Shown here piece after piece: positions 7,499 through 44,920 of a stretch of DNA of 64,000 bases. Position numbers and translations under genes: made by a program. Every line of letters starts with the position of its first letter. The first letter of the stretch is position 1. The notes under the pieces are model-generated. The model searched no databases. It was not told the DNA's origin and saw nothing but the letters and a program-made list of their open reading frames with translations. Origin of the DNA: Candidatus Poribacteria bacterium (GTDB lineage: Bacteria; Poribacteria; WGA-4E; PCPOR2b); contig OZ244587.1 in NCBI GenBank assembly GCA_965218095.1, positions 4,765,203 to 4,829,202 on the forward strand. Reading direction: 5' to 3'.

Positions 7499-7595
7499 AC
7501 CATAATGGCGAGAATCTCGATTACGAGATTGAAATATGGTTGTGTTATATTTTGCCCTAATTGTATGATAAGAATCTCGATTGCGAGATTGAAAT
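7499..7595 (+). CRISPR. Orphan mini-array: two degenerate CRISPR repeats (psiR1 7499-7535, psiR2 7559-7595) around a 23-nt pseudo-spacer
   Basis: psiR1 matches the canonical 37-nt repeat at 27/37 positions, with the 3' 23 nt near-perfect. psiR2 carries GATTGCGAG. Both end GAAAT rather than GAAAC. Located about 640 bp upstream of cas3'. Confidence 0.7.
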
Positions 7596-7603
7596 ATTTT
7601 TAT

Positions 7604-7632
7604 TTGACTTGTTGGGTTGTCTATGTTATAAT
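7604..7632 (+). promoter_or_regulatory. Sigma70-like promoter (TTGACT, 17 nt, TATAAT) directly after the mini-array
   Basis: TTGACT at 7604-7609, a 17-nt spacer, TATAAT at 7627-7632. Confidence 0.5.
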
Positions 7633-7691
7633 TAGTTTATTGTGATGGTAGTGTTATATACTCAATTAGAATAAAAATACAAGGAAATCAA

Positions 7692-7931
7692 ATGCAACCC
7701 TTAAATCCATCTCTGGAAATTCAAGCACATTTAAAAAAAATAGATCGGGAGCAGTCTTATATTGAAGATCGGCATTATGAGATTGGTCAGACTGTAAATC
7801 TTTTAGAACGCGAGAATGCAGATTTACTTGATCGTTATAGCGATCTGGATTCGGCAAAGGAAATTTGCTACAGTGCACTCGCAGGCGACCCCGTCGCGAT
7901 TTGGGCGGAACTTCAGCGGTTCGGACTTTAA
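7692..7931 (+). CDS. Small hypothetical protein (79 aa) downstream of the mini-array and promoter
   Basis: ATG with AAGGAAA RBS 6 nt upstream. Predicted helical/charged. No known domain. Confidence 0.35.
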   Translation: MQPLNPSLEIQAHLKKIDREQSYIEDRHYEIGQTVNLLERENADLLDRYSDLDSAKEICYSALAGDPVAIWAELQRFGL

Positions 7932-8236
7932 GATTGTGGGAAATGCGTCTGGAGAAACCTAGTTTTTCGGCAAAACTGGGAATGGGGCAATCAATTACAT
8001 TCTTAAACAGACGAACCGCAAAAAAAGCAGGGCCTACATCCACCGCCAAGGATGGGTTCGGTCCTGCGCATCGTTATTATAGCATTCAACTCAAGATAGG
8101 TCAAATCCTTTTCAAAAGATTTTAACAAAAATGAGATTCGGCGAGATTTTTTTTGATTAGTTGCAGGTTTGTGCGACTGATCGTATGTTATCATGTTCTC
8201 GGTTACTGGAAAATCCGATGAAATGGAGGGTTTAGA

Positions 8237-10330
8237 GTGATTAAACTTAGAGTCAAACCTGTATACTCTCGAAAGGCGGAAGTTGTTCCCATCAAGAACG
8301 GCCCCGAAGGGCTTGAGTTTCGACAACACCAAGTCGAAACCTATAAAGCGATTCAGGATCCAGATGTAGATGTGATCTTCAATAGGGCAATGACCGGTGA
8401 TGGAAAAAGTTTAGCCGCGTATCTTCCCGCGCTGACGGAAGGCAGGTCAATCCTAGCTATGTACCCAACTAACGAATTAATCAAAGATCAAGAACGACAA
8501 GTGCAGGGATACTGCCAGTGGTTTGAGCAAAATATTGCCTGCGACAAGATGTTTGGGGAACGGCTGTACAAACTTCGTGCAGAATTGACAGATCTACGCG
8601 GGCAAAAAGCCGCGATTGAACTTTTGGCTCTAAAGAATCCAATTCTACTCACAAATCCGGATATCTTTAATCTAATCGCCAATTTTCACTATCTGAACCC
8701 CGAATATGAAAACCCAGATCAGTTGGTACAGCACATTATCGACTATTATGATCTGTTTATCTTCGACGAGTTTCATATCTATGATGTCTCGCAGGTCATC
8801 TCTGTTCTGACAACCATGTTGTATTTCATCGAGCAGGGACGTGGCAAATTCAATCAGAAAAAGTTCGTCTTTCTCTCTGCGACACCGAGCCCACTCCTGC
8901 TGGATTGTTTGGAGAAGGTGAATCTCCGATACAAAATCATCGAAGGGTGTTATCAATTCGATGAACTGGATTCAGCGAATTGGGACGGAATCTGCGCGCC
9001 ATTCGACTTACATTTCCACGCAACGGGTCGCCGTACCGAAGAATGGGTCGAAAACCATTATCAGCAAATCGCCGAGTGGTTTGCCGATAATCCGAATTCA
9101 CGTGGGGCAATTATTGTCAACTCGGTTGCAGCGGCGAAACGAATTTCCTTGTTTCTCAAAGAACGAAACGTGGCGGGGGATTTTCCTCTGAACGTTGGCG
9201 AAAATACTGGACTCAGCAGTCGGGAAGAACGACGTTTTGCTCTCCACGAAAGTGACCTGCTCATCGGGACCTCAACGGTAGATGTCGGTGTTGACTTCAA
9301 AATCAACTTTCTTGTCTTTGAGGCGATAGACGCAGGTTCGTGGATTCAAAGGCTTGGACGGCTTGGTCGGCATTCAGAATACGCAACACCTGACGGGGCG
9401 GTTATGAAGTTTGACCGTTTCGTTGCTCACTCGCTTCTGCCCAAATACGTCTACGAACGGATTGAGCAAGTCGTCACGTCGGATTCAGAAATTGACAAAG
9501 GGACTCTGATTGACCTCATGCGAAGTGAGGATGAGAATAAACGGATTTTCTCTCCCATCAACGATTTTCGCAACTATAAAAAGTCTTGGGGTTGGTTGCA
9601 CGCTTCGCATATCATCAACACTTTGGGGCATCCACGATTGCGCGAAAACTATGCACCCCAGCGAGAAAAACTCACGAAGGTCTATACCGACATTTTCGAG
9701 GCGGATATCGAAACGCGAGCAACAAAATGGTATTTCGCTGTTAAAAATAAACGGCCGGAAATCATTGATTCTGCTGTGATTCAATTTCGTGGTGAGACAC
9801 CTTTCACATGTGGAATCATTGATGAAACAGATGGCGAGGTGAAAGACTACAATCTCCTGTGGACGTTAAGCAACGCCGAAGTCGAATTCATGGACAAGAC
9901 GGATTTCATGCAAGAAATCCAATCGCGGGGAATTCCACCCCGTCAGTTTCGGTCCGTTGGCATCTATCTCCGATTACATGGATATCGCTCAGAGCGAGAG
10001 CGTTTTCACCTGACTCAGAGCCGCAAGATTGGGAAGCAGTTTACTGACGAAGATTACCGTCAGTTGCATACGCTCAAGGGGTTTGAGATTGATGGTAATT
10101 TTCCAGAAATTAACAAAATCAATCGTTGGTTGCGCATAAAACCGCATCTTTGCCTTGTTTGTAAAGAGCCGTTGGGTGATTTACGGCGGCTGTTACGTCT
10201 GCCGATGATGTTTTCCATTTTCTCGCTACTTGATCGGGATGGTAACGAATTCAGCGTCGTATTTTCAAAGGACGCGCTCTTGTTACATTCTCAGCCCTAC
10301 ATTTGGGCGAAGGAGGATTCTAATGGCTGA
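8237..10330 (+). CDS. cas3': CRISPR-associated helicase Cas3' (type I-D; no HD domain)
   Basis: GTG start with a GGAGGG RBS. Helicase motif I MTGDGKS, DExH box FDEFH, motif VI QRLGRLGR. No HD motif. First gene of the cas operon. Confidence 0.8.
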   Translation: MIKLRVKPVYSRKAEVVPIKNGPEGLEFRQHQVETYKAIQDPDVDVIFNRAMTGDGKSLAAYLPALTEGRSILAMYPTNELIKDQERQVQGYCQWFEQNIACDKMFGERLYKLRAELTDLRGQKAAIELLALKNPILLTNPDIFNLIANFHYLNPEYENPDQLVQHIIDYYDLFIFDEFHIYDVSQVISVLTTMLYFIEQGRGKFNQKKFVFLSATPSPLLLDCLEKVNLRYKIIEGCYQFDELDSANWDGICAPFDLHFHATGRRTEEWVENHYQQIAEWFADNPNSRGAIIVNSVAAAKRISLFLKERNVAGDFPLNVGENTGLSSREERRFALHESDLLIGTSTVDVGVDFKINFLVFEAIDAGSWIQRLGRLGRHSEYATPDGAVMKFDRFVAHSLLPKYVYERIEQVVTSDSEIDKGTLIDLMRSEDENKRIFSPINDFRNYKKSWGWLHASHIINTLGHPRLRENYAPQREKLTKVYTDIFEADIETRATKWYFAVKNKRPEIIDSAVIQFRGETPFTCGIIDETDGEVKDYNLLWTLSNAEVEFMDKTDFMQEIQSRGIPPRQFRSVGIYLRLHGYRSERERFHLTQSRKIGKQFTDEDYRQLHTLKGFEIDGNFPEINKINRWLRIKPHLCLVCKEPLGDLRRLLRLPMMFSIFSLLDRDGNEFSVVFSKDALLLHSQPYIWAKEDSNG

Positions 10331-13292
10331 ACAACCTCAACCTGATTTCCTGGGGATTTCAGAGAGTTCCCAAGAAACACAAGAAATCCACGCACAAATC
10401 GCATTGCTGAAAAACGCCGTTGACCCAGACGATTTTGTCTTGACAGACTACGTCGAGACAGTTGTACCGCAGATGCTGGACGAATACACGCTCCGTTCAG
10501 CGAAAGGAAGCACGGTTTGGGCGTCCAATCACGACCAAAGTATGCTCGCGCATATTCTCAACGGCATCTTTCCAACGCTCACGATTGTGCGAATTGCCGG
10601 GCAACCGTTGAGTGAACTAGACGAGCGGCTCTACCTGATTGCCTATTCGTTTCATGACATTGACAAACTCATAGACATCCGTGATTTGAGTGTCTCTGAT
10701 GCGGAGAAGTCTGAGCAATTTTACAGCTACCTTGATGAATGGGTTGCGAAACTCCATTTTGATAAATTCTGTCCAGATTACGAAGATTACCGCGGAGACA
10801 TTGCATATCTCATTCTCAACACGCAGAAGAAATACGGTGCAAACCTCAATTTGCAGAGTTACGATTCGCGCCTACCGGGGCGACGACGCCAGTTTTTGCG
10901 GGAGATGTGTACCGCATCAGACCTTATCGCCTATTTTCTGAAGAATCCGAGTGGATTTCGAGAACAGGCGAATGCCCGTGAATCTCTCGTCAAGCTCAGC
11001 GGTGGGAAACTCGAATTCGCCTATCACAAACTCGCTGAGAATCGCGGTATGATTACGAATGTCATCAACAACGCCTTGCTCAGAATCCTGCGTGACCGAT
11101 TGGGATGGAAACCGTTTCTCTTCTTCCCAACAGGTGTCACATATTTGCGAAAGTGGTTAAGCGAAGAGAGCAACTTGCCGACACAGGATGAAATTGCCGA
11201 GGATGTTGAAAAACAGCTCATTGCATACTGCGCCGGGCGATTAGAGGCGAACCTCAACGGATTTACGCGAGATGGGAAGGGATTTAAGTTTCCCGATTAC
11301 TATTACGATTTCTTCCAACTTCCTGAACTACTCCAACTCATTCGCAAAGGATGCTTCAGGATACTGCACGAGAATAAGTCACCCTCTGCTGGGAAGCGAC
11401 TACAGAAGCTGCTTCAACTTCAGAAAAAAGGTGATATTCCCCCTGATGTCAATCTCCATTTTGAAGAGGATATGCGCGTTGACCAACTTGCGGAATATCT
11501 CTACGAAATCGAGAAACACGTTGGCGCAATAACGAGCCGTGAGGCGGTATCTTCTGAGATTATCACGATTTTGGATACGCAAGAATATCAGACTGACTTT
11601 GAAGCGATTCCACGCGATAATCGGGCAGGCGGTGTGCCGCTACATTGGTATTTCCTCGCAGGCAAATACTTGATGAAAAATCTTGGGCTTGATGCGAATC
11701 AGATGGAAGATTTGTTTGCAGACATTGCCAATCAGGTTGTGACAACATTCGAGGGAGAAATTGAACATCGCGAGGTGGAGAAGGAAGGGTTCAGTGTACT
11801 CCGCGAATATGTTCGAGAAATTGTCGATATCAATGGACACAGTGAGATCGAACGCGACTTTGAAGCGGAATTGGACCGATACACAAACACGAAGAAAAAA
11901 GGGCGTGGCTCGAATGCGGGTTGTTCTCTCTGTTCGTCAACGTTTGAAACAAGCAAGCAACGAGACACGTCGGTCATCTTCGCCAACCAAGTCTACAGTA
12001 ACAAGAACTTGCTCAACTCCTCATTGCTCGTCCGCGGCATCTGTGAATTGTGCGAGGTCGAAATGATGCTCCGACAAATCATGATACGCTCGAAATTGCG
12101 GCTCGTGGGCGGTGGGTATGATGACGTCAAAATCAAGTGGCTGTATCTCTATCCGAGCTACTTTTTCACGACAGAGACAGCGAAGTTTGTCGGCAACGCA
12201 TATCGGCAGATGAAGAACTTGAATTTCTTTGACGTGCGGAAAGCGTTACACAAAGGAATGGCAGTGAGGGATTTCATCAATTTAGATGAAATGGTCATTG
12301 ACACCGAAATTCCGAACCCTGACGATGATTATCTGCTCAAGATGGAGTTCGACACCAACGACCTTGCAACCTTCTACTTCTGCGGAATCCCGACGCTCGG
12401 CAAAAGCCCCACCGATACAGAATCGTGGGCATTACCGACTTTTCTCGGTCTGCTTATGCCATTAGTGTTCAATGCGAAGGTCGTTGTGACCGAGTCGCAG
12501 ATTCCACTCTATCACAGCAGCGAGGAGTGGAAAGAGACAGTTGTTCTCAATGCCCCCCATCCGTTTGTGAAGCACATTCTAGGCACAGTCGAAATCCGCA
12601 TTGACCAGATCGAAGCGGCTTTGAAGAAGATTGTTGCTGCCTACGATATGAATATTGATGTATTCCAAAAGGATGGTAAACCGCAGTGGCAACACCTCAA
12701 CGAAATTGGGCGGAACATTGACACAGACCCACTTTACGTTTTTCATTATCTCGAAGCGTTTCGCCGGAAGCAGGGTTGGGACAGTTTCCCCAAACCCCGT
12801 GATGGCGAATCATCAATCCCGGAACGATACATCCAAACTTATCACCATATTGGAGGTGACAAGATGAGTCTCATTGAAGAAGTCGCCAAACGGTGCTTCA
12901 AATTTTACGGACCCGATAACTTCAAGCCGAACAGTGTCTTGAAGGTGATTACGCTGGTTGAAGACGTGATTGTCAACAGCGAGTCGAAAATTAACGCAAC
13001 TGATCTAAAATACCAAGCCATTGGCGAGGTAAGTAACCTGATGCAACGGATTCGGTCAAGTCGTGCCCAAGGCTACGCTCGGCTCCACCCTAGAGATGAA
13101 GAACCATCAGCTATTCACGAATTTGTTGAATATTTTTATAACGTGGTGTTTGCTGAATATTACGATGGCGAGCGCGGTATGCTTCGTCAACGTCGCAACC
13201 GCTTTAATGCGGGTGTCAACGCATGGTATCAGGTAAACTGGCGTCAATTCCAAACGAAAAAGGCAAAGGAGGAAAACAATGCCGACAATTGA
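10323..13292 (+). CDS. cas10d: Type I-D large subunit Cas10d with an N-terminal HD-nuclease-like motif
   Basis: About 990 aa. N-terminal H...HD motifs (MLAHIL ... SFHDIDK). Four-Cys zinc finger (CSLC...CELC). The ATG at 10323 has an AAGGAGG RBS and overlaps the cas3' stop; the ORF track's 10230 start is less likely. Confidence 0.7.
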   Translation: MAEQPQPDFLGISESSQETQEIHAQIALLKNAVDPDDFVLTDYVETVVPQMLDEYTLRSAKGSTVWASNHDQSMLAHILNGIFPTLTIVRIAGQPLSELDERLYLIAYSFHDIDKLIDIRDLSVSDAEKSEQFYSYLDEWVAKLHFDKFCPDYEDYRGDIAYLILNTQKKYGANLNLQSYDSRLPGRRRQFLREMCTASDLIAYFLKNPSGFREQANARESLVKLSGGKLEFAYHKLAENRGMITNVINNALLRILRDRLGWKPFLFFPTGVTYLRKWLSEESNLPTQDEIAEDVEKQLIAYCAGRLEANLNGFTRDGKGFKFPDYYYDFFQLPELLQLIRKGCFRILHENKSPSAGKRLQKLLQLQKKGDIPPDVNLHFEEDMRVDQLAEYLYEIEKHVGAITSREAVSSEIITILDTQEYQTDFEAIPRDNRAGGVPLHWYFLAGKYLMKNLGLDANQMEDLFADIANQVVTTFEGEIEHREVEKEGFSVLREYVREIVDINGHSEIERDFEAELDRYTNTKKKGRGSNAGCSLCSSTFETSKQRDTSVIFANQVYSNKNLLNSSLLVRGICELCEVEMMLRQIMIRSKLRLVGGGYDDVKIKWLYLYPSYFFTTETAKFVGNAYRQMKNLNFFDVRKALHKGMAVRDFINLDEMVIDTEIPNPDDDYLLKMEFDTNDLATFYFCGIPTLGKSPTDTESWALPTFLGLLMPLVFNAKVVVTESQIPLYHSSEEWKETVVLNAPHPFVKHILGTVEIRIDQIEAALKKIVAAYDMNIDVFQKDGKPQWQHLNEIGRNIDTDPLYVFHYLEAFRRKQGWDSFPKPRDGESSIPERYIQTYHHIGGDKMSLIEEVAKRCFKFYGPDNFKPNSVLKVITLVEDVIVNSESKINATDLKYQAIGEVSNLMQRIRSSRAQGYARLHPRDEEPSAIHEFVEYFYNVVFAEYYDGERGMLRQRRNRFNAGVNAWYQVNWRQFQTKKAKEENNADN

Positions 13293-14286
13293 AATTCCGA
13301 AAGAGCTCGTTCCCGAAAATTATTTTTTGAATCGAATTCCGAAAGCCCCAACGGGGCGTTATGCACATCTGATTGTGGTTCGTGAAACAGAGTCGTTTCC
13401 CGTTTTTCAAACAGATGGCACGCTCAACATTGCCAAGGTCAAGGCAGGTTTGCAAAATGGCGATTCGCTCATACGCCTTGCGATGTTCAAGCGGAAACAG
13501 AGTTCGCCAGAGCGACTTACTGGACGCGAATTGCTGAGAAGCACAGGCATTACACAGAATGAAGATGCCGGCGAAGATAACTACTGTGACTACAACGAGC
13601 AGTTCTGTACGACCTGCCCCGACTGCGTTTACTACGGGTTCGCAATCGGTGATTCTGGCTCTGAAAAATCAAAGGTGTATGTTGATACCGCCTATTCGAT
13701 TACAGGCTACGATGAGTCACATCAGCAGTTTTCATTCAACGCGCTGTATGAAAAAGGGAACATGAGTCAGCATGGCGAAGTTCGCTCTAGCTTTGGCGAA
13801 CAAGACCACATCGTACCACAAGTTTTCTTTCCCTCTATCATTACCATTAAGGATGTGATGGTCAACAGTTTTGCCTACGTTTTGAACAACGTGCTACGAA
13901 CGAAACGTTACGGCGCGCAGACGACACGAACCGGACGACTTGCCAATCATATCGTCGGAGCGGTATTTGCTGATGGTGAGATCTTTTCAAATCTTAAATT
14001 CACGCAAGCCATCCACGATGCGTTGGGCAACGACAAGGACGAAACGCCGTTGAATCCTGAGAAAGTTTTTCAAACGGCTCGATTAACCACATCCGAGCTC
14101 TTGAAGGATGACGGTGTGAACTATCATCTACTTGAGGAAGAAAACCTGCAAGAGTTACTTGGCATCGTCAAGTCCGCGACAACGGATGAAGAAAAACTTC
14201 ATCAACTTTTGCAGGAGGCAAACGCCGAGACGCAGGAATACTCCGAACGAGTGATTCAAAAGGCATCAAACAAAAAGAAAAAGTAG
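13279..14286 (+). CDS. csc2: Cas7 backbone subunit (Csc2-type, type I-D)
   Basis: 335 aa. AAGGAGG RBS. Overlaps the cas10d stop. Four-Cys cluster CDYNEQFCTTCPDC. Position and size match Cas7d. Confidence 0.6.
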   Translation: MPTIEIPKELVPENYFLNRIPKAPTGRYAHLIVVRETESFPVFQTDGTLNIAKVKAGLQNGDSLIRLAMFKRKQSSPERLTGRELLRSTGITQNEDAGEDNYCDYNEQFCTTCPDCVYYGFAIGDSGSEKSKVYVDTAYSITGYDESHQQFSFNALYEKGNMSQHGEVRSSFGEQDHIVPQVFFPSIITIKDVMVNSFAYVLNNVLRTKRYGAQTTRTGRLANHIVGAVFADGEIFSNLKFTQAIHDALGNDKDETPLNPEKVFQTARLTTSELLKDDGVNYHLLEEENLQELLGIVKSATTDEEKLHQLLQEANAETQEYSERVIQKASNKKKK

Positions 14287-14295: not shown

Positions 14296-14991
14296 ATGCA
14301 AGTCACGAGATGCCGCCTTATCCTGCACGACTCTCTCTACTACGCGACTCGTGAGATGGGGCGACTGTACGAGACGGAGAAGGTCATCCACAATTGGGCG
14401 TTGACGTATGCGCTCGGTTTGATTCAAAAGCCGTATAGATCATTTAACAGCGTTCCAACTTATCAGGAGGACCTCACACCAATCAATGCGGCAGGTGTCT
14501 ATGTGACACCTGCCAAACCGATTCATTATGATTATATAATCAGTACCTTCAAATTCGCGGACAATCGACATCGCCCGTTTTCAACTGTCAGCAATACGCG
14601 AAAAAGGGAGTTGAAGATTACTGTGACGAACAAACCATCTTTCGGCAAGGCGAAGGAACTTGCGCCGGAGAGCGAGTTTGAATTTTTCATCATGGGTAAA
14701 TTGCCCGAACGGGTCCCGAAGTGGATCCGGTTGGGATTGTGGATGAGCAAAGCAAAAATCGAAATCAAAGATCGTCAGGACTTGACCGTTCAACGGGGTC
14801 AATTTACATGTCCTCACTTGTTGAATCCGCTAGATCTTTCAATTCGGCCGCAACTCTATGATCTGATCTCGATGCCGCCGGTGAGTCTTCTTCAAAATGT
14901 GACTTTGACAGGCGAGTACGTTGCGTTTCAGAGAGAGCAAGAAACAGTTTGTTTACCAGCCACAATGAGATATTTTGCAAACTCAACTTAG
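14296..14991 (+). CDS. csc1: Cas5 subunit (Csc1-type, type I-D)
   Basis: 231 aa. TAGGAGGG RBS. Lies between cas7 and cas6 as in I-D operons. Assigned mainly by synteny. Confidence 0.5.
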   Translation: MQVTRCRLILHDSLYYATREMGRLYETEKVIHNWALTYALGLIQKPYRSFNSVPTYQEDLTPINAAGVYVTPAKPIHYDYIISTFKFADNRHRPFSTVSNTRKRELKITVTNKPSFGKAKELAPESEFEFFIMGKLPERVPKWIRLGLWMSKAKIEIKDRQDLTVQRGQFTCPHLLNPLDLSIRPQLYDLISMPPVSLLQNVTLTGEYVAFQREQETVCLPATMRYFANST

Positions 14992-15848
14992 AAAAGTTCA
15001 CCATGCCCATCAGCACCGTTATCTACCTCATCCCCCCCGAAGATGTCACACTTCGTCCGACGATGGGGCATCACGCGCACGCTGCGTTCCTATCGCTGTT
15101 GCGAATTGGCAATCCGGAAAAAGCGGAAGAAATTCACGCCACATCCGCGCAGAAACCGTTTACTGTTTCGCCGCTGATTGGTAAAGGCGAACGACGTGGG
15201 GATTTCCTGCACATCCGCGCTGGAACGGAATGCTGGCTCCGCTTTACGTTCCTCGACGATGAACTCTTCGCCTACTTCGGCAACGCCTTCTTGACACAGC
15301 AACTGCCGTCCATCCGCATCGGACAGGCGATGTTTCAACTCAGCCGATTGAATTCATCTGGGACAGAGGGTAAAGATTGGAGCGGCGCAAGAACCTACGA
15401 AGACCTAATTGAATCTGCGCGGACAGACACTCGGATTCAGATGCGATTCCATTCGCCGACCGCCTTTCGGGAACTGACTCCGCACGGGCGAAAAACACGC
15501 AATCAAGCAAATATTGACCTGCAACGTTGCTATCAGAGTTGGGTCAACAAATGGAATGCCTTCGGACCGATGCAGATTGATAAGCAACGCCTTCTCGATT
15601 TCGTGGTCGGTCACGCCGGGCTGACCACAGTTGAGGCCAAGAGCCGGATGCTCGATTTCGGCAGACATAAGGCGGTCGGATTTGTTGGAAATTGTGCATA
15701 CCAATTTTTCGTGAAGCGTCAATCCGATGATGAGGGTAACATTGAGATGTTACGTTTGGTGAACCTGCTCGCCGATTTCGCCTTTTACTGTGGCACCGGC
15801 TACAAAACGACGATGGGGATGGGACAGACGCGGCGACGACAATCCTGA
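14949..15848 (+). CDS. cas6: Cas6 crRNA endoribonuclease
   Basis: C-terminal glycine-rich loop GTGYKTTMGMGQ typical of Cas6. The start may be the downstream Met at 15003. Confidence 0.75.
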   Translation: MFTSHNEIFCKLNLEKFTMPISTVIYLIPPEDVTLRPTMGHHAHAAFLSLLRIGNPEKAEEIHATSAQKPFTVSPLIGKGERRGDFLHIRAGTECWLRFTFLDDELFAYFGNAFLTQQLPSIRIGQAMFQLSRLNSSGTEGKDWSGARTYEDLIESARTDTRIQMRFHSPTAFRELTPHGRKTRNQANIDLQRCYQSWVNKWNAFGPMQIDKQRLLDFVVGHAGLTTVEAKSRMLDFGRHKAVGFVGNCAYQFFVKRQSDDEGNIEMLRLVNLLADFAFYCGTGYKTTMGMGQTRRRQS

Positions 15849-16208
15849 TCACGAGATTGACATCAGATCGACATCAAGTGCCTCGGCAATCGCCTTCAAC
15901 GTTTTGACGGAACCGGACTTTCGTCCTGTCTCAATCCCCGCTAAATATGCACGTTGAATGCCGGTTTTATCCGCAAGTTGCTTCTGTGTGAGTCCCCGGT
16001 ACTCGCGATACACCTTGATCGGATTCTCCTCATTGAGAATCAGCCGATTAATCACCTCGCCGGGGAAGGTTTCCTCATCAATGGCTTTCGCCCTACGAAA
16101 ATCACGAATGTCTCTAAGCATCTCCGCATCTGCAAGGAGTTGGTCGTAATGCTCTATCGGTACAAGGGCAAATTTCTGACCTTCTATTTCTACTGTTTCA
16201 AGGCTCAT
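15849..16208 (-). CDS. higA: XRE-family HTH antitoxin (HigA-like)
   Basis: HTH LTQKQLADKTGIQRAYLAGIETGRKS. ATGA overlap with the upstream toxin gene. Confidence 0.75.
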   Translation of the reverse strand: MSLETVEIEGQKFALVPIEHYDQLLADAEMLRDIRDFRRAKAIDEETFPGEVINRLILNEENPIKVYREYRGLTQKQLADKTGIQRAYLAGIETGRKSGSVKTLKAIAEALDVDLMSIS

Positions 16209-16462
16209 TTATACACACCGCCTCTCGGTCCAATTTTTACGATTTCAAGTACAAAGGTGTCATCATGGAGTTCATACAGCACTCGCCAGTCACCCACTCT
16301 GAGCCGGTATCCCGGCTCACCTGTTAGGCGTGTTATATTATTGTTCGGCGCGTAAGGATTCTCAGCAAGTTGGTTAATCTTCCCAACAACGGTTTTCGCT
16401 ACATTACTGGGCATCCGCTGGAGCATCTTCATCGCGCTTGCTCGATATCGAATCTGATACAT
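16205..16462 (-). CDS. higB: RelE/ParE-family toxin (HigB-like)
   Basis: ...KLTGEPGYRLRVGDWRVLYELHDDTFVLEIVKIGPRGGVYK is a RelE/ParE signature. The toxin-first order is typical of higBA. The start is set at the internal Met; the ORF track extends to 16501. Confidence 0.75.
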   Translation of the reverse strand: MYQIRYRASAMKMLQRMPSNVAKTVVGKINQLAENPYAPNNNITRLTGEPGYRLRVGDWRVLYELHDDTFVLEIVKIGPRGGVYK

Positions 16463-16547
16463 GATGCCCCTTATTGTAGCTAAAAGCAACCTGAAAATCA
16501 AGCATTTCCGTTACACACCCCGTTCCACAAATCTGGAGTATTAAACC

Positions 16548-18230
16548 ATGTCCGAAACCTACATACCGCTTTCGCAGATAAACACCTATGTCTTCTGCCC
16601 GCGCCGATTCTACTACGAATCCGTTGAGGGCCATCAGGTGATTAACGAGCATGTCGAAGAGGGGAAGATCAAACACGCCCGCGTTGATACGGAGATGAAA
16701 GGTCGCAACGAGCGCGGGGTGAAGGTCTCGCGTCGACAATACCTCGCCTCTGATGCACTTGGTGTCTCCGGTTATCTCGATCTAATTGAAGAGAAGGACG
16801 GTGTGCCGTATCCGGTCGAATACAAGAAAGCCGGCACCGGCAACTGGCTCAACGATCAGGTTCAACTCTGTCTACAAGGGATGCTAATCGAAGAGAGCAC
16901 TGGCATTGAGGCGCCTCACGGCTATATCTACTACATCGGCTCCAAACGCCGCCGAAAGGTGGTCTTTGATGACGAACTGCGGCAGACCAGTCTCGACTTT
17001 GTCTCTAACGCCGAATCGCTGTTGCAGACAAGAAAGATTCCCGAACCGGTCCACGACAACCGGTGTAACGGGTGTAGCGTCCGAGGCATCTGTCTTCCAG
17101 ACGAGGTTGCCTATCTCCATGAATTAGACGATCGACCAAAACGCATCAAACCTGTGCTTGGGATCGATAACGTGCTGTATGTCGATGAAGCGGGCTGTAT
17201 ACTCAAAAAAACTGGGGAACGCCTGCTCGTTGTCAAAGAGGGAGAAACCATCCGCGACATTCCGCTCATCCATCTCGGCCAGGTTGTGCTTTGTGGCAAC
17301 ATCAGTGTGACGACCCCGGTGATGCAAACCCTGCTCAACGAGGGGATTCCGGTTGTTTACCTGTCTGCGTACGGACGCTATCAGGGAACGCTTACGCCGA
17401 AAATCTCCCGAAACTCACTCCTGCGCGTCGCTCAACATCGGATCGCGGATGACCCGGAAAAGTGCCTCGCGCTCGCGAAAGCGTTTGTACATGGCAAAAT
17501 CACGAACATGCGGATGATGCTCCAGCGTCGGAAATGGCGGAACAGAACGACCAACGACAAAGATCTCGATTGCGAAGTTGAAACAAACGGAATCGAAACT
17601 GAGGACAGGCACGCCGACATTTTATCGAGCATTAAGGGACTCGCTGCGATGCGCCGGAAGATTCCCAAAGCGGAACGGCTCCCTGAACTGCTTGGTATTG
17701 AAGGTAACGCCTCTGCCGCGTATTTCCAATCGTTTTCCGCCATGCTCAAACCAGAAATGGGATTTGACTTTGAACGCCGCTCCCGCCGACCACCCGCGGA
17801 TGCGACCAATTCGTTGCTTAGTTTTGCCTACTCGCTATTGACAGCGGATCTGATTTCCGCCATCCAGCTTGTCGGACTCGACCCATACGTGGGGTTCTTC
17901 CATCAACAGAATTACGGGCGTCCCTGCCTCGCATTAGACCTCATGGAGGAGTTCCGTCCGATCATCGCCGATTCAGTTGTGATTACGCTCATCAACAAAC
18001 GGCAGATTAAACCGGATGACTTCACCCAATCGCACGGCGGCTGGTTCCTCAAAGACGCCGCCCGCAAGCGGTTCTACGCCGCCTACGAGGGACGCAAAAA
18101 TGAGACGATTACACACCCTGTCTTCAAGTACAAAATCAACTTTCGCCGTGCAGTCGAATTACAGGTACGATTGCTTGCCAAGTGTCTAATGGGAGAGATT
18201 GAAACCTACACGCCGCTGACAGTTCGATAG
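16548..18230 (+). CDS. cas4-cas1: Cas4-Cas1 fusion protein (adaptation)
   Basis: N-terminal Cas4: Cys in FCPRRFYY plus the C-terminal CNGCSVRGIC cluster (4-Cys Fe-S), and a PD-(D/E)xK core (DLIEE...EYKK). C-terminal about 330 aa is Cas1-like. Confidence 0.85.
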   Translation: MSETYIPLSQINTYVFCPRRFYYESVEGHQVINEHVEEGKIKHARVDTEMKGRNERGVKVSRRQYLASDALGVSGYLDLIEEKDGVPYPVEYKKAGTGNWLNDQVQLCLQGMLIEESTGIEAPHGYIYYIGSKRRRKVVFDDELRQTSLDFVSNAESLLQTRKIPEPVHDNRCNGCSVRGICLPDEVAYLHELDDRPKRIKPVLGIDNVLYVDEAGCILKKTGERLLVVKEGETIRDIPLIHLGQVVLCGNISVTTPVMQTLLNEGIPVVYLSAYGRYQGTLTPKISRNSLLRVAQHRIADDPEKCLALAKAFVHGKITNMRMMLQRRKWRNRTTNDKDLDCEVETNGIETEDRHADILSSIKGLAAMRRKIPKAERLPELLGIEGNASAAYFQSFSAMLKPEMGFDFERRSRRPPADATNSLLSFAYSLLTADLISAIQLVGLDPYVGFFHQQNYGRPCLALDLMEEFRPIIADSVVITLINKRQIKPDDFTQSHGGWFLKDAARKRFYAAYEGRKNETITHPVFKYKINFRRAVELQVRLLAKCLMGEIETYTPLTVR

Positions 18231-18541
18231 CGGTTGTAGGGGCAATGCCTTGTGCTTGCCCATAGTAGAGGTGAGATTGAAACCTACACGCCGCTGACAG
18301 TTCGATAGCGGTTGTAGGGGCAATGCCTTGTGCTTGCCCATAGTAGAGGTGAGATTGAAACCTACGCGCCACTGACAGTTCGATAGCGGTTGTAGGGGCA
18401 ATGCCTTGTGCTTGCCCATAGTAGAGGTGAGATTGAAACCTACGCGCCACTGACGGTTCGATAGCGGTTGTAGGGGCAATGCCTTGTGCTTGCCCATAGT
18501 AGAGGTGAGATTGAAACCTACGCGCCACTGACGGTTCAATA
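18194..18541 (+). repeat. 78-bp tandem repeat, about 4.4 copies, starting inside the last codons of cas4-cas1
   Basis: Unit GAGATTGAAACCTAC(A/G)CGCC(G/A)CTGAC(A/G)GTTCGATAGCGGTTGTAGGGGCAATGCCTTGTGCTTGCCCATAGTAGAGGT, with starts at 18194, 18272, 18350, 18428 and 18506. Each unit contains two hairpins and the 11-mer GAGATTGAAAC, identical to the 3' end of the CRISPR repeat. Confidence 0.9.
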
Positions 18542-18561
18542 GGCTGTCGGAGGAGAAACCG

Positions 18562-18834
18562 ATGTTTTACGCAGTTGCCTATGATATTACCAATGACCGG
18601 CGGCGAAACGCAGTTGCCAAAATTTTGCTAGATTTCGGCACACGCATCCAATATAGTATATTTGAGTGCAACACCGATCGACGCGCTTACCTCCGGCTAC
18701 AAGATCGGCTTCAGGATGCCATCAATCCCAAGGAGGATGCTGTGACTTTCTATCATCTCTGCCGGTCCTGCGAGAAGGGGATCGAACGGATTGGTATCAA
18801 AAAAGGAATTGACAAAGCCGCGTATATCGTTTAG
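18562..18834 (+). CDS. cas2: Cas2
   Basis: MFYAVAYDITNDRRRNAVAKILLDFGTRIQYSIFEC is canonical Cas2. 90 aa. GGAGGAG RBS. Confidence 0.85.
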   Translation: MFYAVAYDITNDRRRNAVAKILLDFGTRIQYSIFECNTDRRAYLRLQDRLQDAINPKEDAVTFYHLCRSCEKGIERIGIKKGIDKAAYIV

Positions 18835-19066
18835 CATCCAAATCGGGCATAAGGGCATTCGGGTTCGGAAAACTCAACTGTCAACCGCTGAGCTAACAAA
18901 AAGCGAAGTGTCCGACAGGATCGGTGAAGAGACTGTTATGATAGGGGTTTGACGATGTACCTTTTTGAAAATCGCCCATTTCAACTGGATCAACAACTGA
19001 AACATCCAAGTCTGACAGAAAGCAGTGTTCAAAATGCTTGCTGTTACTGGCTTTCAAATGGTCGCT
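18835..19066 (+). promoter_or_regulatory. CRISPR leader region
   Basis: Non-coding 230 bp between cas2 and the first repeat. The conserved repeats are at this end; the degenerate repeats are at the far end. Confidence 0.6.
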
Positions 19067-22000
19067 CGATCAATGATAAGAATCTCGATTACGAGATTGA
19101 AACGCAAATATCGTGAAAATGGCGGGGTTGTATGGGTGGACGATCAATGATAAGAATCTCGATTACGAGATTGAAACATGTCAACGAAACGGTACAACAA
19201 CTCGCCGATGATGCGATCAATGATAAGAATCTCGATTACGAGATTGAAACGTAAAAGGTGGGAGATGCCCCCAGCTGGGTTGCTGGGCGATCAATGATAA
19301 GAATCTCGATTACGAGATTGAAACTACATTAATAATGAGCCGCTCCGCGACTTTGGTGGTGACGATCAATGATAAGAATCTCGATTACGAGATTGAAACA
19401 AATATCATCGGGATGATCTACCAATTTATCCGCAATCGATCAATGATAAGAATCTCGATTACGAGATTGAAACCAACGCTCGGGTTGCGACATCGACACT
19501 CCCAAACCCTCGATCAATGATAAGAATCTCGATTACGAGATTGAAACGCATCAGTAATGATATACTCCGACGAAGCGAACCTGTCCGATCAATGATAAGA
19601 ATCTCGATTACGAGATTGAAACTACATTATGATAGCAATGGCAACCACAACGGCTATACGATCAATGATAAGAATCTCGATTACGAGATTGAAACTCACC
19701 GGTGCTAACGACATCCGACGGAATACCCGGCTCGATCAATGATAAGAATCTCGATTACGAGATTGAAACCAGGTGAGGGAATCGCTTTCAGATCGCGAGA
19801 TACGCACGATCAATGATAAGAATCTCGATTACGAGATTGAAACATAATCCTCAGCATCATACGCTTCAAACGGTTTAATCGATCAATGATAAGAATCTCG
19901 ATTACGAGATTGAAACGGAACGCCGGCGCTGCATACAGTGTTTAATCGCGCCTTCGATCAATGATAAGAATCTCGATTACGAGATTGAAACACTGCCATG
20001 CTTTCCAGAGAGTCATAGTGCGGTCGCCGATCAATGATAAGAATCTCGATTACGAGATTGAAACTGAGACAACCTGTACTTTTCAATCCTCCAGTGAACA
20101 CCGATCAATGATAAGAATCTCGATTACGAGATTGAAACGACAAAGAGCGGATCAGAACTCTCCTCAGTATCCCCGATCAATGATAAGAATCTCGATTACG
20201 AGATTGAAACGACAGCCTCCGAGAAGAAGCCCGACGACTCAACATCACCCCCGCGATCAATGATAAGAATCTCGATTACGAGATTGAAACCTGGGTGGAA
20301 CGGCGCAATGGGATAGCGACGAATTTCGACGATCAATGATAAGAATCTCGATTACGAGATTGAAACACATGGCATGGAAACTCGGGCTGATGGGAATCTG
20401 GGATCGATCAATGATAAGAATCTCGATTACGAGATTGAAACAAGTCCAAAATCGTCCCGTCCAGCAACAACACCTCTAAAACGATCAATGATAAGAATCT
20501 CGATTACGAGATTGAAACAGAGATTCGCTGGGAATTAGGCGCATCCTCATCGAGGCGATCAATGATAAGAATCTCGATTACGAGATTGAAACTACCACGA
20601 CCGCGAAGGGCGCCCCCGACAGTATCTTCCGATCAATGATAAGAATCTCGATTACGAGATTGAAACCAAGTACCACTTCGATGTTGCCACTCACCGTCGC
20701 GGTGTTCGATCAATGATAAGAATCTCGATTACGAGATTGAAACCAGCAAGTCAGGGTACGATTTGCGAGTCTGCCCGATGACGATCAATGATAAGAATCT
20801 CGATTACGAGATTGAAACAAAACGGTAGGACCAACAACGAAATTTGGACAGGCAGCTCGATCAATGATAAGAATCTCGATTACGAGATTGAAACTGTAAA
20901 CGATAATGACGATCTTGAAGTCGGCACACAATTCGATCAATGATAAGAATCTCGATTACGAGATTGAAACAGCTATAACCAAGACCGCATCCTGATTCCG
21001 ATGGAGATTCGATCAATGATAAGAATCTCGATTACGAGATTGAAACAAGTCCAAAATCGTCCCGTCCAGCAACAACACCTCTAAAACGATCAATGATAAG
21101 AATCTCGATTACGAGATTGAAACGACTGAGTTCTATCGAGAATACCCGTCAACGCCGGAGGACGATCAATGATAAGAATCTCGATTACGAGATTGAAACT
21201 CCCCGTCGTCGCCGCAGACAGCGCACCCGACGCCCCGATCAATGATAAGAATCTCGATTACGAGATTGAAACGCGAAACGTGCGATTTCTCTGCCGAAGC
21301 GGATGGAGATACGATCAATGATAAGAATCTCGATTACGAGATTGAAACCAGCGAATATCTTGGGACCCATCCTCTGCTGATCGTATCATCGATCAATGAT
21401 AAGAATCTCGATTACGAGATTGAAACGAAGGGCACACCATTGATGTACAATCGATAATCGAACTCGATCAATGATAAGAATCTCGATTACGAGATTGAAA
21501 CCACTGGGGCATCCATCAGTACCGATTGAGATATACGAATCGATCAATGATAAGAATCTCGATTACGAGATTGAAACTTGTGATCCACCTGCGCCCATCG
21601 CGCTATCTGCCTGTCGATCAATGATAAGAATCTCGATTACGAGATTGAAACACAGGCACGATTTCAGGAAAGACGGTCATCCCGTTTGACGATCAATGAT
21701 AAGAATCTCGATTACGAGATTGAAACGAGATTCAACAGATCCCGCGCTGCACCCCGCCGTCCCGACGATCAATGATAAGAATCTCGATTACGAGATTGAA
21801 ACTACCATGCCAGAAATAGCGGTTCAAAGTTGCTTTCGCGATCAATGATAAGAATCTCGATTACGAGATTGAAACACAGACGCATCATCGGTATCGGGGT
21901 CAACCACCGCTTCCGATCAATGATAAGAATCTCGATTACGAGATTGAAACTTCTATAATCCAAATAGTTCAAAAATACTCAGTGTTCGATCAATGATAAG

Positions 22001-23940
22001 AATCTCGATTACGAGATTGAAACCGTTGAAAGGTGGGAATATGGCAAAGATTCAATTAGGCGATCAATGATAAGAATCTCGATTACGAGATTGAAACAAC
22101 ATCATCAAACGGCAGGATAAATTCACCCGATGTTGCGATCAATGATAAGAATCTCGATTACGAGATTGAAACTCAAGGCATTTACTCCTTCGAGGGATGG
22201 CGGGCTGAGGAGCGATCAATGATAAGAATCTCGATTACGAGATTGAAACCAGTGGCTGCTTCGTTGCGCGGATACCACCGCTTGCGATCAATGATAAGAA
22301 TCTCGATTACGAGATTGAAACGCGGCGGTGAGTTACTTTCCCTTGTTCAATCCGGCTACCCGATCAATGATAAGAATCTCGATTACGAGATTGAAACCGG
22401 AACTGGATCAACTGACTGAGCAGGGTAAGCAGAACGATCAATGATAAGAATCTCGATTACGAGATTGAAACTAACGTCTCGCGTCTCATGTTCCGCGTCT
22501 GCCGGTGCGATCAATGATAAGAATCTCGATTACGAGATTGAAACTGGTGCGCAAGTGCTGGGTGCGCGTGCGGGTCGTGCCAAGCGATCAATGATAAGAA
22601 TCTCGATTACGAGATTGAAACAGCCGTTGGTATCACGTCTTTGTGGGTTTCGTCAACGATCAATGATAAGAATCTCGATTACGAGATTGAAACGAAACCA
22701 ATAATCGTGTACCATTTTTGATACGATTCGCCACGATCAATGATAAGAATCTCGATTACGAGATTGAAACTCTGAAGATTTCAGCGTTATCAATCAAATA
22801 CGCTTTACGATCAATGATAAGAATCTCGATTACGAGATTGAAACAGAAATGACTTCCCATTCGGAACGTGGCAAGTTTATACGATCAACGATAAGACACT
22901 CGATTGCGAGATTGAAACAAACCCAAACCAGAGGCATGGATAAAGTGTGGATAACGATCAACGATAAGAATCTCGATTACGAGATTGAAACATGAATGAA
23001 CACCACCAGAAGATTTGTTGATGGCTGTACGATCAACGATAAGAATCTCGATTACGAGATTGAAGCTGCTGAGCTCTCACCATGTGGAAGTCGGCGTGAA
23101 GCGATCAACGATAAGACACTCGATTACGAGATTGAAACTTCCCACACCTCTCGTGGCAGTGTCTGAGGTTCAGGGAACGATCAACGATAAGACACTCGAT
23201 TGCGAGATTGAAACGGGGGTGGTATTGTATTTGTTGCGTGAGTCCGTGTTTTCGATCAACGATAAGAATCTCGATTACGAGATTGAAACCCGCAGCCGGC
23301 GGAGCGGAGAATACAGCGCATTCAACGATCAATGATAAGAATCTCGATTACGAGATTGAAACTTATCAGACAGTACCACTTCAAGCCCATTTAATCTGCG
23401 ATCAACGATAAGAATCTCGATTACGAGATTGAAACAGCGGTGCAAACCGATTAAGGCGCCAGGCCTCGAACAACGATCAACGATAAGAATCTCAATTACG
23501 AGATTGAAACATGGTAGAGGGTAAGAAAGCTCACCAGATGGAGATCGCCGCCGATCAACGATAAGACACTCGATTGCGAGATTGAAACAGTTTCGATTTG
23601 ACTCCCATCAGTTTGACTCCTTTTTTTTGTGCATGCACAAGAAAATTCGCCGCACGATCAACGATAAGATTCTCGATTACGAGATTGAAACGTGGAAAAC
23701 AGATGAAATACAAAAAGCCATCGGAAACTCCCGATGCTTCTGTTGAAGTCGGCGTTGAAAAAGATGCTGTTGATGGATTCTCTTACGGTGTTCTGGAGCG
23801 AGTCACGGTATTGAGTCCATGCGGACCTCGGATCAGGGAATCGATACCTGTTGCCTCCCACGACGTAAGAAATGAAGCGCGAGTTGCGGCGGGGGAAACA
23901 GAACAACCTACGATAAGACTCTCGATTACGAGATTGAAAC
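19067..23940 (+). CRISPR. CRISPR array: about 65 copies of the 37-nt repeat CGATCAATGATAAGAATCTCGATTACGAGATTGAAAC, with spacers of about 34-38 nt
   Basis: Read directly. The repeat contains the hairpin AATCTCG-atta-CGAGATT followed by the ATTGAAAC 5'-handle. Repeats from about 22883 onward carry substitutions (CAACGAT, GACACTC, GATTGCG, GAAGC). The terminal relic repeat at 23909-23940 is preceded by an aberrant 217-bp interval. Confidence 0.97.
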
Positions 23941-35082: not shown

Positions 35083-35238
35083 TAACCTGAGTTGCTAGTA
35101 TCATAGAGAAACCGAGTTTTTCACTTTCAGATTGTCTGATTTAGGGAAAATCAGTTGTATTTTTCCCTAAATCGTGTTCCTTATCTATAAAAAACTCGGT
35201 TTCTGACGCTTGCTTTATCAACTAGCAACTTGCGTTAT
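35083..35238. mobile_element. MITE-like palindromic element, copy A (about 155 bp, imperfect terminal inverted repeats)
   Basis: Identical, as a reverse complement, to 44766-44920. Nested internal inverted repeats (AGTTGCTAGT/ACTAGCAACT; GAAACCGAGTTTTT/AAAAACTCGGTTTC; TTTAGGGAAAA/TTTTCCCTAAA). Confidence 0.75.
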
Positions 35239-44765: not shown

Positions 44766-44920
44766 TAACGCAAGTTGCTAGTTGATAAAGCAAGCGTCAG
44801 AAACCGAGTTTTTTATAGATAAGGAACACGATTTAGGGAAAAATACAACTGATTTTCCCTAAATCAGACAATCTGAAAGTGAAAAACTCGGTTTCTCTAT
44901 GATACTAGCAACTCAGGTTA
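44766..44920. mobile_element. MITE-like palindromic element, copy B (inverted relative to copy A)
   Basis: Reverse complement identical to 35083-35238. Confidence 0.75.

Follow-up and report, generated by a model that had tools for sequence, protein, structure and literature searches.

The stretch of DNA analysed here, a window of 64,000 nucleotides, carries a type I-D CRISPR-Cas locus of Candidatus Poribacteria, as assigned by NCBIfam profile matches, and all 71 related loci also belong to Candidatus Poribacteria. On the plus strand, a cas4-cas1 fusion of 560 aa (16548..18230; NCBIfam cas4g_cas1g, 621 bits, with the Cas1d and Cas4 models) is followed by cas2 (18562..18834, 90 aa; NCBIfam cas2). 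An exact look-up of the Cas4-Cas1 protein gave no identical record, and that of Cas2 gave matches, the identical protein being encoded on four other contigs. Downstream lie the CRISPR leader (18835-19066) and the plus-strand CRISPR array (19067..23940), which consists of 63 repeats of 37 nt, with a degenerate distal end, and of spacers of 35-43 nt (mode 37), with a repeat-spacer period of 72-80. Of 61 spacers, none is 42 nt long and three are at least 41 nt long.

The end of cas4-cas1 and the gap before cas2 are occupied by a tandem array. Its 78-bp repeat, reported in the first-pass annotation at coordinates off by 1 nt, is real: Tandem Repeats Finder places it on the plus strand at window positions 18195-18542 (period 78, 4.5 copies, 98% matches, indels 0, score 647), in line with a repeat search and a register print-out. 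The array is only 348 bp long and reads head-to-tail as four complete units (18195-18272, 18273-18350, 18351-18428 and 18429-18506) and a partial fifth of 36 nt (18507-18542). Each unit is composed of segment A, 36 bp, and segment B, 42 bp. The first copy of A (18195..18230, plus strand) is the functional end of cas1 (EIETYTPLTVR*, E550-R560), that is, the final 11 codons and the TAG, and it is this stretch of 36 nt that is duplicated, not 15 codons as had been proposed. The first copy of B (18231..18272, plus strand; CGGTTGTAGGGGCAATGCCTTGTGCTTGCCCATAGTAGAGGT) recurs at 18309-18350, 18387-18428 and 18465-18506. The units vary at four positions (16, 21, 27 and 32, corresponding to 18210, 18215, 18221 and 18226 in the first copy), where two or three point differences had been counted, and the variation forms a gradient along the array. 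The terminal partial copy, A', is a decayed copy of the cas1 end that differs from A at 4 of 36 positions (11%); together with the native 19-nt cas1-cas2 spacer GCTGTCGGAGGAGAAACCG, which contains the RBS GGAGGAG, it spans 18507..18561 on the plus strand.

The 42-nt inter-repeat segments are identical across all copies in the window, as against the differing spacers of a CRISPR, and the initial view that this is not a second CRISPR array is thereby upheld. All three plus-strand frames of the unit contain stops. Two minus-strand ORFs spanning the array (130 and 117 aa) gave no match in a family search and were rejected as repeat artefacts; Rfam likewise gave no match within the array. A possible homology of the trailer (from 23941) to segment A was discarded as well, since it amounted to a 9-mer only, not above ordinary-spacer controls. 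The cas1 reading frame in copy 1 and the cas2 RBS after the last copy are both intact, and the array is therefore evidently tolerated within the adaptation operon.

Every unit opens, as had been noted from the start, with GAGATTGAAAC, identical to the 3'-terminal 11 nt of the CRISPR repeat (37 nt; CGATCAATGATAAGAATCTCGATTACGAGATTGAAAC), and outside the CRISPR array this 11-mer occurs in the window only in the five tandem-array copies. It corresponds to the codons of E-I-E-T in the Cas1 tail motif EI[ED]xYTPLT[VI]R*, conserved in the 71 relatives; the 8-nt 5' handle ATTGAAAC, present in every unit, is explained by cas1 codons in the same way. The 11-mer stands at the same cas1 position in 6 of the 71 related loci, and none of these six has a 78-bp-type repeat, which argues against a crRNA-like role. 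The chance of 1 in 30 originally given for the match is correct for random sequence, which is the wrong model here; because the 11-mer is found at 6/71 cas1 ends and terminates the CRISPR arrays of 60/71 relatives, the empirical value is about 1 in 12. Read in its coding context, the 11-mer is a run of cas1 E-I-E-T codons, carried along passively.

Segment B contains, every 78 nt, the core GTAGGGGCAATGCCTTGTGCTTGCCC (18236..18261 in the first copy, plus strand), a short imperfect palindrome of 26 nt, GGGCAA(T)GC-CTTGT-GCTTGCCC, with a predicted G+C-rich stem-loop fold and an unpaired GTAG at one end (the window reads TTGTAGGGGC). The exact core was found in more than 120 metagenome contigs of 26-68% GC, in 46 distinct flank contexts, and GTA precedes 126 of the 134 metagenomic copies. 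No further core was detected in the 64-kb window, and in 960 kb of Poribacteria loci it was confined to CRISPR trailers; at the trailer of eight relatives, a core variant followed by a T-run forms a terminator-like hairpin with a 10-bp stem. It should also be mentioned that a 10-mer of the B tail lies near the trailer terminator of one relative (L012), with a roughly estimated chance of 0.03; this match was not relied on. A literature search on the core sequence found nothing. By its sequence features, the core is best classified as a GTAG-tagged REP-type hairpin, which belongs with the small palindromic repeats, a very widespread class described, together with REP clusters and BIMEs, by Di Nocera et al. 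2013 (PMC3733652), Nunvar 2010 (PMC2817692) and Ton-Hoang 2012 (PMC3333891). REP elements become tandemly reiterated along with flanking DNA (PMC3733652). At the same time, direct repeats of at least 12 nt are missing from the flanks of 101 of 114 REP copies elsewhere, and a 36-bp duplication is therefore not a normal by-product of this REP.

Data on closely related loci characterize the behaviour of the array. Four contigs from two samples, which encode the identical Cas2, are 97.5-98.8% identical to the window in DNA and have private point differences, carry 1.5, 1.5, 1.5 and 2.5 copies, and the window carries 4.5. In order, the copies in the window are A, A, A'A, A'A and A'. The third and fourth are chimeras of A' and A in which the A' type invariably occupies the 5' side; this is the polarity that duplication after A'/A mispairing should produce. 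The middle copy of L072 does not fit this simple polarity, and extra conversion events are therefore needed there. The recombination hotspot suggested in the first-pass annotation is thus substantiated by copy numbers of 1.5, 2.5 and 4.5 in loci about 98% identical and by the chimeric units, and the copy number varies freely between isolates, which the same annotation had regarded, together with a lack of any transcript or processing signal, as the mark of a neutral expansion. The comparison shows that the array behaves as a VNTR. Its copy number has changed through slippage or unequal crossing-over involving A and A', and most probably it is a neutral minisatellite of variable copy number.

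Relatives also provide the state without the array. Five loci (L010, L014, L015, L064 and L069) have an "empty" site, a 19-nt cas1-cas2 spacer without B, and the last partial copy of the window with its native spacer equals this junction, as matched in L014, L010 and L069. In relatives the cas1-cas2 gap is hypervariable, from 13 to 2087 nt, and 47 of 69 loci have more than 60 nt there, as against 9-55 nt for the csc2-csc1 gap. In L002/L004 (109 bp x2), L027 and L035 it harbours REP-like or tandem arrays of other kinds, and the GGAAG-rich gap elements of eight relatives matched no Rfam family, Poribacteria-1 included. GTAG-hairpins were reported by an automatic finder, which proved too strict, in 2 of 68 cas1-cas2 gaps and 2 of 62 controls.

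Taking these data as a whole, we consider it rather probable that the array is a non-coding minisatellite (VNTR) in the adaptation operon, not a CRISPR-RNA element, and that its A-B-A' structure arose, most likely, by REP-linked duplication or slippage. This favoured route, in which the creating step is the inferred one, would begin at an ancestral junction of the cas1 TAG, a 19-nt spacer with the RBS, and cas2. A single event would have placed a 42-bp segment with the GTAG-tagged REP-type core directly after the cas1 stop, between two direct 36-bp copies of the cas1 end, and so produced the basal A-B-A'; REP-linked duplication, or replication slippage with template switching at short microhomologies, purine-rich or GTAGG, could account for it. 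Later unequal crossing-over or slippage, pairing A with A', changed the copy number. The consequence would be at most a side effect on expression, with the 19-nt cas1-cas2 coupling distance lost and 1-4 stable hairpins introduced into the mRNA; by analogy with intra-operon REPs, the array could favour cas4-cas1 over cas2 expression. The ends of B show marginal similarity to the ancestral post-stop sequence (p = 0.03-0.05), and a model of microhomology-mediated duplication followed by REP insertion, with support at the same marginal level (p = 0.03-0.05), was not adopted. Against the favoured route, the lengths of duplication (36 bp) and insert (42 bp) agree with CRISPR repeat and spacer sizes, and four similar events cluster in or beside cas1 in relatives.

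These same features suggest another origin, which differs from the favoured explanation only in the route to A-B-A' and which we regard as possible, though clearly the less probable of the two. The locus's own Cas4-Cas1/Cas2 would have inserted a spacer-sized fragment, by chance a REP hairpin of host origin, off target at the cas1 end by staggered cuts about one repeat length apart, duplicating the 36-bp target; the resulting pseudo repeat-spacer unit, a "neo-CRISPR" seed, would then have been amplified by unequal crossing-over. The dimensions are close, with a duplication of 36 bp beside a repeat of 37 nt, an insert of 42 nt beside spacers of 35-43 nt, and a period of 78 within 72-80. Events of the same geometry occur in other species in the cas1 linker or the cas1-cas2 gap: a perfect 37-bp repeat with a 35-nt insert, in frame in cas1 (L050), a 36+39 direct repeat and insert, in frame inside cas1 (L008), and two direct repeats with unique inserts in the gap (L040, 37+39; L024, 40+34). 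No local template was found for the inserts of L050, L040 and L024, and among 23 independent repeats of period 45-140, seven have a period of 72-78, against an expectation of about 1.7. The rarity of long flanking repeats at REP copies elsewhere points in the same direction, and non-canonical spacer integration by E. coli Cas1-Cas2, spawning neo-CRISPR arrays, is documented by Nivala, Shipman & Church 2018, according to citations in PMC7054753, 10.1101/148544 and PMC6698737.

Set against this, the target does not resemble the repeat or leader in register (8-13/37; in-register identity 9/37; leader vs left flank 6/20), the 11-mer stands at the wrong end of the duplicated stretch, and the exact lengths deviate, the duplication being 36 and not 37 and the array having no 42-nt spacer. 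The insert is a dispersed hairpin whose GTAG head adjoins a target in which relatives already have TGTAGG, which points to REP- or microhomology-driven events. Tandem arrays are numerous in Poribacteria intergenic regions, with unrelated periods of 48-128; the IMG/VR search gave no protospacer for any insert (no match for those of L050, L040 and L024, and one unrelated match for the REP core); and the six relatives with the same 11-mer lack the insertion. If integration did occur, A-B-A' and at least four insertions in relatives (L050, L008, L040 and L024) would record natural off-target integration by type I-D Cas4-Cas1/Cas2 into or beside its own gene. The array in the window would then be a pseudo-CRISPR at an early stage that recombination has amplified, and Cas1 proteins of the clade would carry translated scars, one of them a CRISPR-repeat-derived 45-nt insertion; we offer this reading tentatively. 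It would constitute rare natural evidence of self-directed off-target spacer integration and would bear on the birth of new CRISPR arrays and on the cost of an integrase beside its own gene; it also predicts that flanking-duplication length should track repeat length across systems, which is directly testable.

A functional RNA, whether a Cas6 decoy, a crRNA-like regulator, or a selected attenuator or stabiliser setting the Cas1:Cas2 ratio via copy number, appears improbable. The handle does lie within the operon transcript, the copy number is variable, as in phase-variable loci, and REP hairpins can modulate expression within operons (PMC3733652). Two hairpins per unit, as described in the first-pass annotation, are indeed predicted (MFE -26 kcal/mol, z = -2.3), but the A-type to A'-type substitutions disrupt hairpin 1 without compensation. 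Across 32 variants of the CRISPR repeat, covariation preserves a 7-bp hairpin (AATCTCG/CGAGATT); the 5' arm of this hairpin was sought upstream of the 11-mer in the units and is absent, and no local fold is predicted there (z = -0.19). The repeat covariance model assigns 59.9 bits to real repeats and 6.5 bits to the first unit, and internal units have no match even at E<=10. With the Cas6 hairpin missing and scores of at most 6.5 vs 59.9 bits, the proposed Cas6 decoy or processed crRNA-like element finds no support. No promoter-like or terminator-like site was found in the array, and the element is limited to one species-level clade, the gaps of 69 relatives holding unrelated sequences. A genuine repeat-like mini-array with intact hairpins is located elsewhere in the locus, at 7513-7595, and the repeat covariance model gives 30-35 bits to two genuine elements of repeat-like sequence lying upstream of cas3'.

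Still less credit can be given to a recombination scar, in which an incoming cas4-cas1 allele with a downstream REP replaced the resident one and an imprecise join left the resident cas1 tail (A') before cas2. The 11% difference between A and A' is indeed close to between-species divergence, strains differing by only 1-2.5%, and segment-wise identities to relatives are mosaic; against it, A' variants are mostly missing from the sampled relatives, all relatives are at least 12% divergent, so that no breakpoint can be placed, and the join would have to fall, for no evident reason, exactly at the start of A. An assembly artefact, to which short tandem repeats are prone, is very improbable for an array of this small size whose structure recurs in four independent contigs from two samples with differing copy numbers and private point differences.

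Taken as a minisatellite with a REP, the array is of little import in itself and is usable as a strain marker. More generally, it shows that small repeats are tolerated at, and drawn to, the cas1-cas2 junction of Poribacteria, and it calls for caution, since agreement with a CRISPR repeat over 11 nt can be a coincidence of coding.

Several known systems offer themselves for comparison. CreA/CreR-type crRNA-like RNAs are CRISPR-derived regulatory mini-arrays, as reported by Li et al. 2021 and Shmakov et al. 2023. The units in the window resemble them in holding the 8-nt crRNA handle inside a cas locus, but lack the repeat hairpin, the flanking degenerate repeats and a spacer-like segment with a PAM-adjacent target; the element at 7513-7595 fits this kind far better than the 78-bp units do. 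The MIRUs of Mycobacterium (Supply et al. 1997) are bacterial intergenic minisatellites or VNTRs. As in MIRUs, units of 40-100 bp lie in an intra-operon gap with strain-polymorphic copy number, and the unit takes in the stop codon of the gene before it while leaving the start signals of the next gene in place; in contrast to MIRUs, the flanking genes are not linked by a small ORF, and the unit includes a REP hairpin together with a duplicated gene end.

With neo-CRISPR arrays the locus shares a putative target duplication of about repeat length flanking an insert within the spacer size range beside the integrase genes, with similar events in relatives. It differs from them in that the "spacers" are all identical (amplified, not acquired), the pseudo-repeat has no in-register likeness to the true repeat, the insert is a host hairpin element, and the role of the integrase is putative. 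Unlike known REPs, the co-amplified flank is here the cas1 3' end, with a 36-bp flanking duplication that is absent at other copies. With GTAG REPs and BIMEs it nonetheless shares an imperfect palindrome of 26 nt headed by an unpaired GTAG, an extragenic position directly after a stop codon, tandem reiteration that includes a piece of flanking DNA, as in REP clusters, and a core dispersed in many genomes.

Between the cas4-cas1 fusion gene (16548–18230) and cas2 (18562–18834), a 78-bp unit is repeated head to tail in 4.5 copies (18195–18542). The copies are 98% identical and free of indels (TRF score 647). Each unit consists of segment A, 36 nt that carry the final 11 cas1 codons (EIETYTPLTVR) and the TAG stop, and segment B, 42 nt with the sequence CGGTTGTAGGGGCAATGCCTTGTGCTTGCCCATAGTAGAGGT. 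The partial fifth copy, A', is joined directly to GCTGTCGGAGGAGAAACCG-ATG, and the 19-nt spacer with the ribosome-binding site that follows it is the cas1-cas2 spacer of the related loci L010, L014, L015, L064, and L069. Because this junction is the same as that of the relatives, copy 1 is the true end of cas1 and the last copy leads into the true start signals of cas2; the sequence between them is extra. The unit contains stops in all three plus-strand frames, and two long minus-strand ORFs across the array, neither with a family match, were rejected as repeat artefacts.

The ORF list and family models assign the genes around the array to a type I-D CRISPR-Cas operon, with cas3' (8237–10330), cas10d (10230–13292), csc2 (13279–14286), csc1 (14296–14991), and cas6 (14949–15848) upstream of cas4-cas1, and a CRISPR array (19067–23940) of 63 repeats of the 37-nt CGATCAATGATAAGAATCTCGATTACGAGATTGAAAC with spacers of 35–43 nt. 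A search of species-representative genomes gave 71 related loci (L001–L071), all from Candidatus Poribacteria, which are sponge symbionts. An HTH antitoxin and RelE/ParE-type toxin pair (15849–16501, minus strand) lies between cas6 and cas4-cas1; in strain L072, which is 98% identical, this gap holds a 23S_rRNA_IVP (four-helix bundle) gene and not the toxin–antitoxin pair. In the CRISPR array, one repeat-spacer-repeat block is present twice with 100% identity (20404–20518 and 21009–21123), and in its distal part the repeats are degenerate and two "spacers" are over-long, at 66 and 212 nt (23589–23654 and 23692–23903).

An exact protein look-up with Cas2 returned four further contigs from two ENA samples, with 97.5–98.8% DNA identity to the window across the cas genes. 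The copy number is 1.5 in three of them (L073, L074, and L075), 2.5 in L072, and 4.5 in the window; the array is thus a VNTR, and its basal state is the 1.5-copy form, A-B-A'. Four sites separate A from A' (unit positions 16, 21, 27, and 32), and the copies in the window follow the order A, A, A'A-chimera, A'A-chimera, A', with the A' type 5' in every chimera. This polarity is that expected of a duplication product if the downstream A' mispairs with the upstream A; in the reciprocal product, the array would be cut back precisely to a single copy. The copies of L072 require further conversion events beyond simple A'/A mispairing. Of the proposals in the first-pass annotation, that of a recombination hotspot is borne out by the differing copy number among near-identical loci and by the chimeric copies. 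The annotation had also held that an array whose copy number varies freely among isolates would be a neutral slippage expansion, and such variation is what we observed. Overall, the array is a real feature, and the best explanation for it is an ordinary minisatellite that bears a REP and is polymorphic in copy number. Elsewhere in the window, an in-frame tandem duplication inside ORF 4863–5801 (5604–5757, plus strand, 2.0 copies, 92%) also has a 78-bp period, apparently by coincidence.

The 26-nt core of segment B, GTAGGGGCAATGCCTTGTGCTTGCCC, is a GTAG-tagged REP-type hairpin. A scan of metagenome contigs found the exact core in at least 120 contig stretches and at least 134 copies; among the matches listed, GTA directly precedes it in 126 of 134 copies, and it occurs in at least 46 flank contexts on contigs of 26–68% G+C. 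The core frequently forms a pair with an inverted partner, an arrangement also seen in BIMEs. GTAG REPs frequently adjoin or provide TAG stops (PMC3733652). Exact matches occur in distant organisms because the family follows a shared template, GTAGGGGC-N4-CCTTGTG-N4'-GCCC; in metagenome loci L077–L196, where the exact core spans 22–23 nt, the related partners GGGCAGGGACAAGCCCTGCCCCTAC and GGCGACCACAAGGGTCGCCCCTAC fit the same template, which suggests a single, very widespread REP superfamily. In one AT-rich metagenome organism, the core lies in tandem composite units of 116–123 bp. On the opposite strand, directly past the terminal CRISPR repeat, eight Poribacteria relatives carry the variant GGGGCAAGCCTTGTGCTTGCCC with a T-run; TGTAGGGGCAAGCCTTGTGCTTGCCC with a T-run lies within about 10 nt of the terminal repeat in L010 (11961–11985, minus strand), L011, L012, L013, L015, L024, L060, and L064. 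With its T-run, this trailer variant scores like an intrinsic terminator and has the look of a conserved, convergent terminator next to the array trailer. The last repeat of L013, L015, L011, and L064 has the T-run in place of its 3' end.

As for the origin of A-B-A', we lean towards a route independent of the Cas proteins, in which the form would have arisen by REP-linked duplication, or by microhomology-mediated duplication followed by REP insertion at GTAG. In favour of this route, the inserted segment is itself a REP, TGTAGG already stood in the ancestral post-stop sequence, the two ends of B show a weak resemblance to that sequence (p = 0.03–0.05), and these intergenic regions commonly contain tandem arrays.

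Off-target integration by the locus's own Cas4-Cas1/Cas2 would account for the dimensions of A-B-A', with a 36-bp duplication against the 37-nt repeat, a 42-nt insert against spacers of 35–43 nt, and a period of 78 within the array's 72–80; furthermore, 101 of 114 REP copies elsewhere have no flanking direct repeat of at least 12 nt. We found four more events of a direct repeat with a unique insert in 534 kb of cas-operon DNA, all in the cas1 linker or the cas1-cas2 gap, and their geometry is that of CRISPR spacer integration. Two are in frame in the cas1 linker and leave the ORF intact, namely L050 (7048–7156; a 37-bp repeat, 37/37 identical, plus 35 nt, with an empty site in relatives) and L008 (7021–7131; 36 + 39, the insert being a dispersed TIR hairpin); the others, L040 (7640–7752; 37 + 39) and L024 (7676–7789; 40 + 34), lie in the cas1-cas2 gap. 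However, the targets are unlike the repeat in register (8–13/37), in the duplicated segment the 11-mer shared with the repeat lies at the wrong end, none of the spacers in the CRISPR array has a length of 42 nt, and protospacer searches in IMG/VR found none. We regard this origin as the less likely of the two. Both readings include amplification by unequal exchange, which is demonstrated. An element resembling a MITE, about 100 nt long and bearing TIRs GAAACCGAGTTTTT...AAAAACTCGGTTTC, is present in inverted copies at about 35109–35215 and 44790–44900 and also at 5841; a back-to-back pair of these TIRs forms the 39-nt insert of L008 cas1 and occurs in L013, L015, and L069.

The further proposals of a processed or regulatory RNA and a Cas6 decoy are not supported. 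In the folded CRISPR repeat, a 7-bp hairpin, AAUCUCG-AUUA-CGAGAUU, precedes GAAAC, and compensatory changes maintain this hairpin across 32 repeat variants of relatives (G-C to A-U, n = 14; U-A to C-G, n = 1). A covariance model trained on these variants gave genuine repeats 59.9 bits and the first tandem unit 6.5 bits (E 0.2–0.5), and the internal units were unlisted even at E ≤ 10; with no GAGATT complement upstream of the 11-mer in the units (fold z = −0.19), the hairpin's 5' arm is missing and the array was rejected as a Cas6 substrate. The A-to-A' changes disrupt the first predicted hairpin of the unit without compensation, the array matches no Rfam family, and no promoter-like or terminator-like sites were found in it. 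As the annotation had stated, it is not a second CRISPR array, failing the defining test for one.

The 11-mer itself, GAGATTGAAAC, comprises codons GAG-ATT-GAA-AC(C), the E-I-E-T of the conserved Cas1 tail EI[ED]xYTPLT[VI]R*. The repeat ends with it in 60 of 71 relatives, whereas the cas1 codons at this site vary (GAAATTGATCAA and others) and give the exact 11-mer in only six; in the cas1-cas2 gaps of these six (19, 19, 19, 19, 105, and 659 nt), the cas1 end is not repeated. The match is no signal that follows the repeat as it changes, but a coincidence of coding, with odds of about 1 in 12.

Two other repeat-like elements occur in the locus. A full-length 37-mer, CGACCAACGACAAAGATCTCGATTGCGAAGTTGAAAC (17548–17584, plus strand), lies in frame in cas4-cas1, encodes TNDKDLDCEVET, and is identical to the repeat at 29/37 positions (null best match 17–22/37; covariance model 21.5 bits). 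It belongs to a 45-nt insertion common to the 560-aa Cas4-Cas1 clade and missing from the 545-aa clade, and the homologous segment of L001–L009 matches the repeat in register at 17–25/37 (chance about 9–10); the insertion is a candidate repeat-derived coding insertion. About 640 nt upstream of cas3', two degenerate repeats (7513–7534 and 7565–7595, plus strand) with a 30-nt spacer form a mini-array whose Cas6-type hairpins are intact (30.5 and 34.6 bits in the covariance model) and whose repeats end in GAAAT. A promoter, TTGACT-17-TATAAT (about 7604–7634), is immediately 3' of it, and the 5' part of the spacer matches 14/15 nt at 7645–7659, preceded by GTG, just downstream of the −10 box (shuffle p = 0.034). 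The mini-array is a candidate crRNA-like autoregulator (CreR/CreA type), whose target would be either a small ORF at 7693 or the cas operon.

In Poribacteria, the cas1-cas2 gap is a general dumping ground. The gap (about locus 7640–8400) is 13–2087 nt long, with 47 of 69 loci above 60 nt, in contrast to 9–55 nt for csc2-csc1. Across L001–L071 it is filled by unrelated material that matches no Rfam family; this includes REP-like hairpins (L002/L004, L008, L020, L027, L034, and L035), inverted repeats of GGAAGAWTGGAAG/CTTCC (GGAAG/CTTCC), tandem arrays whose periods range over 48–128, and tandem duplications of 109 bp x2 in L002/L004 and 98 bp in L027. In L020, L027, and L035, a GTAG REP-like hairpin provides the cas1 TAG stop.

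Both cas1 and cas2 are intact, the distance coupling them grows from 19 nt to 97–331 nt, and the mRNA gains one to four stable predicted hairpins without U-runs. By analogy with REPs inside operons, such hairpins could protect the upstream message and lower the relative output of cas2; nothing in the present evidence indicates selection for this effect. In its behavior, the array is like a REP cluster or VNTR, and it is comparable to the MIRU minisatellites of mycobacteria, which are likewise intra-operon.
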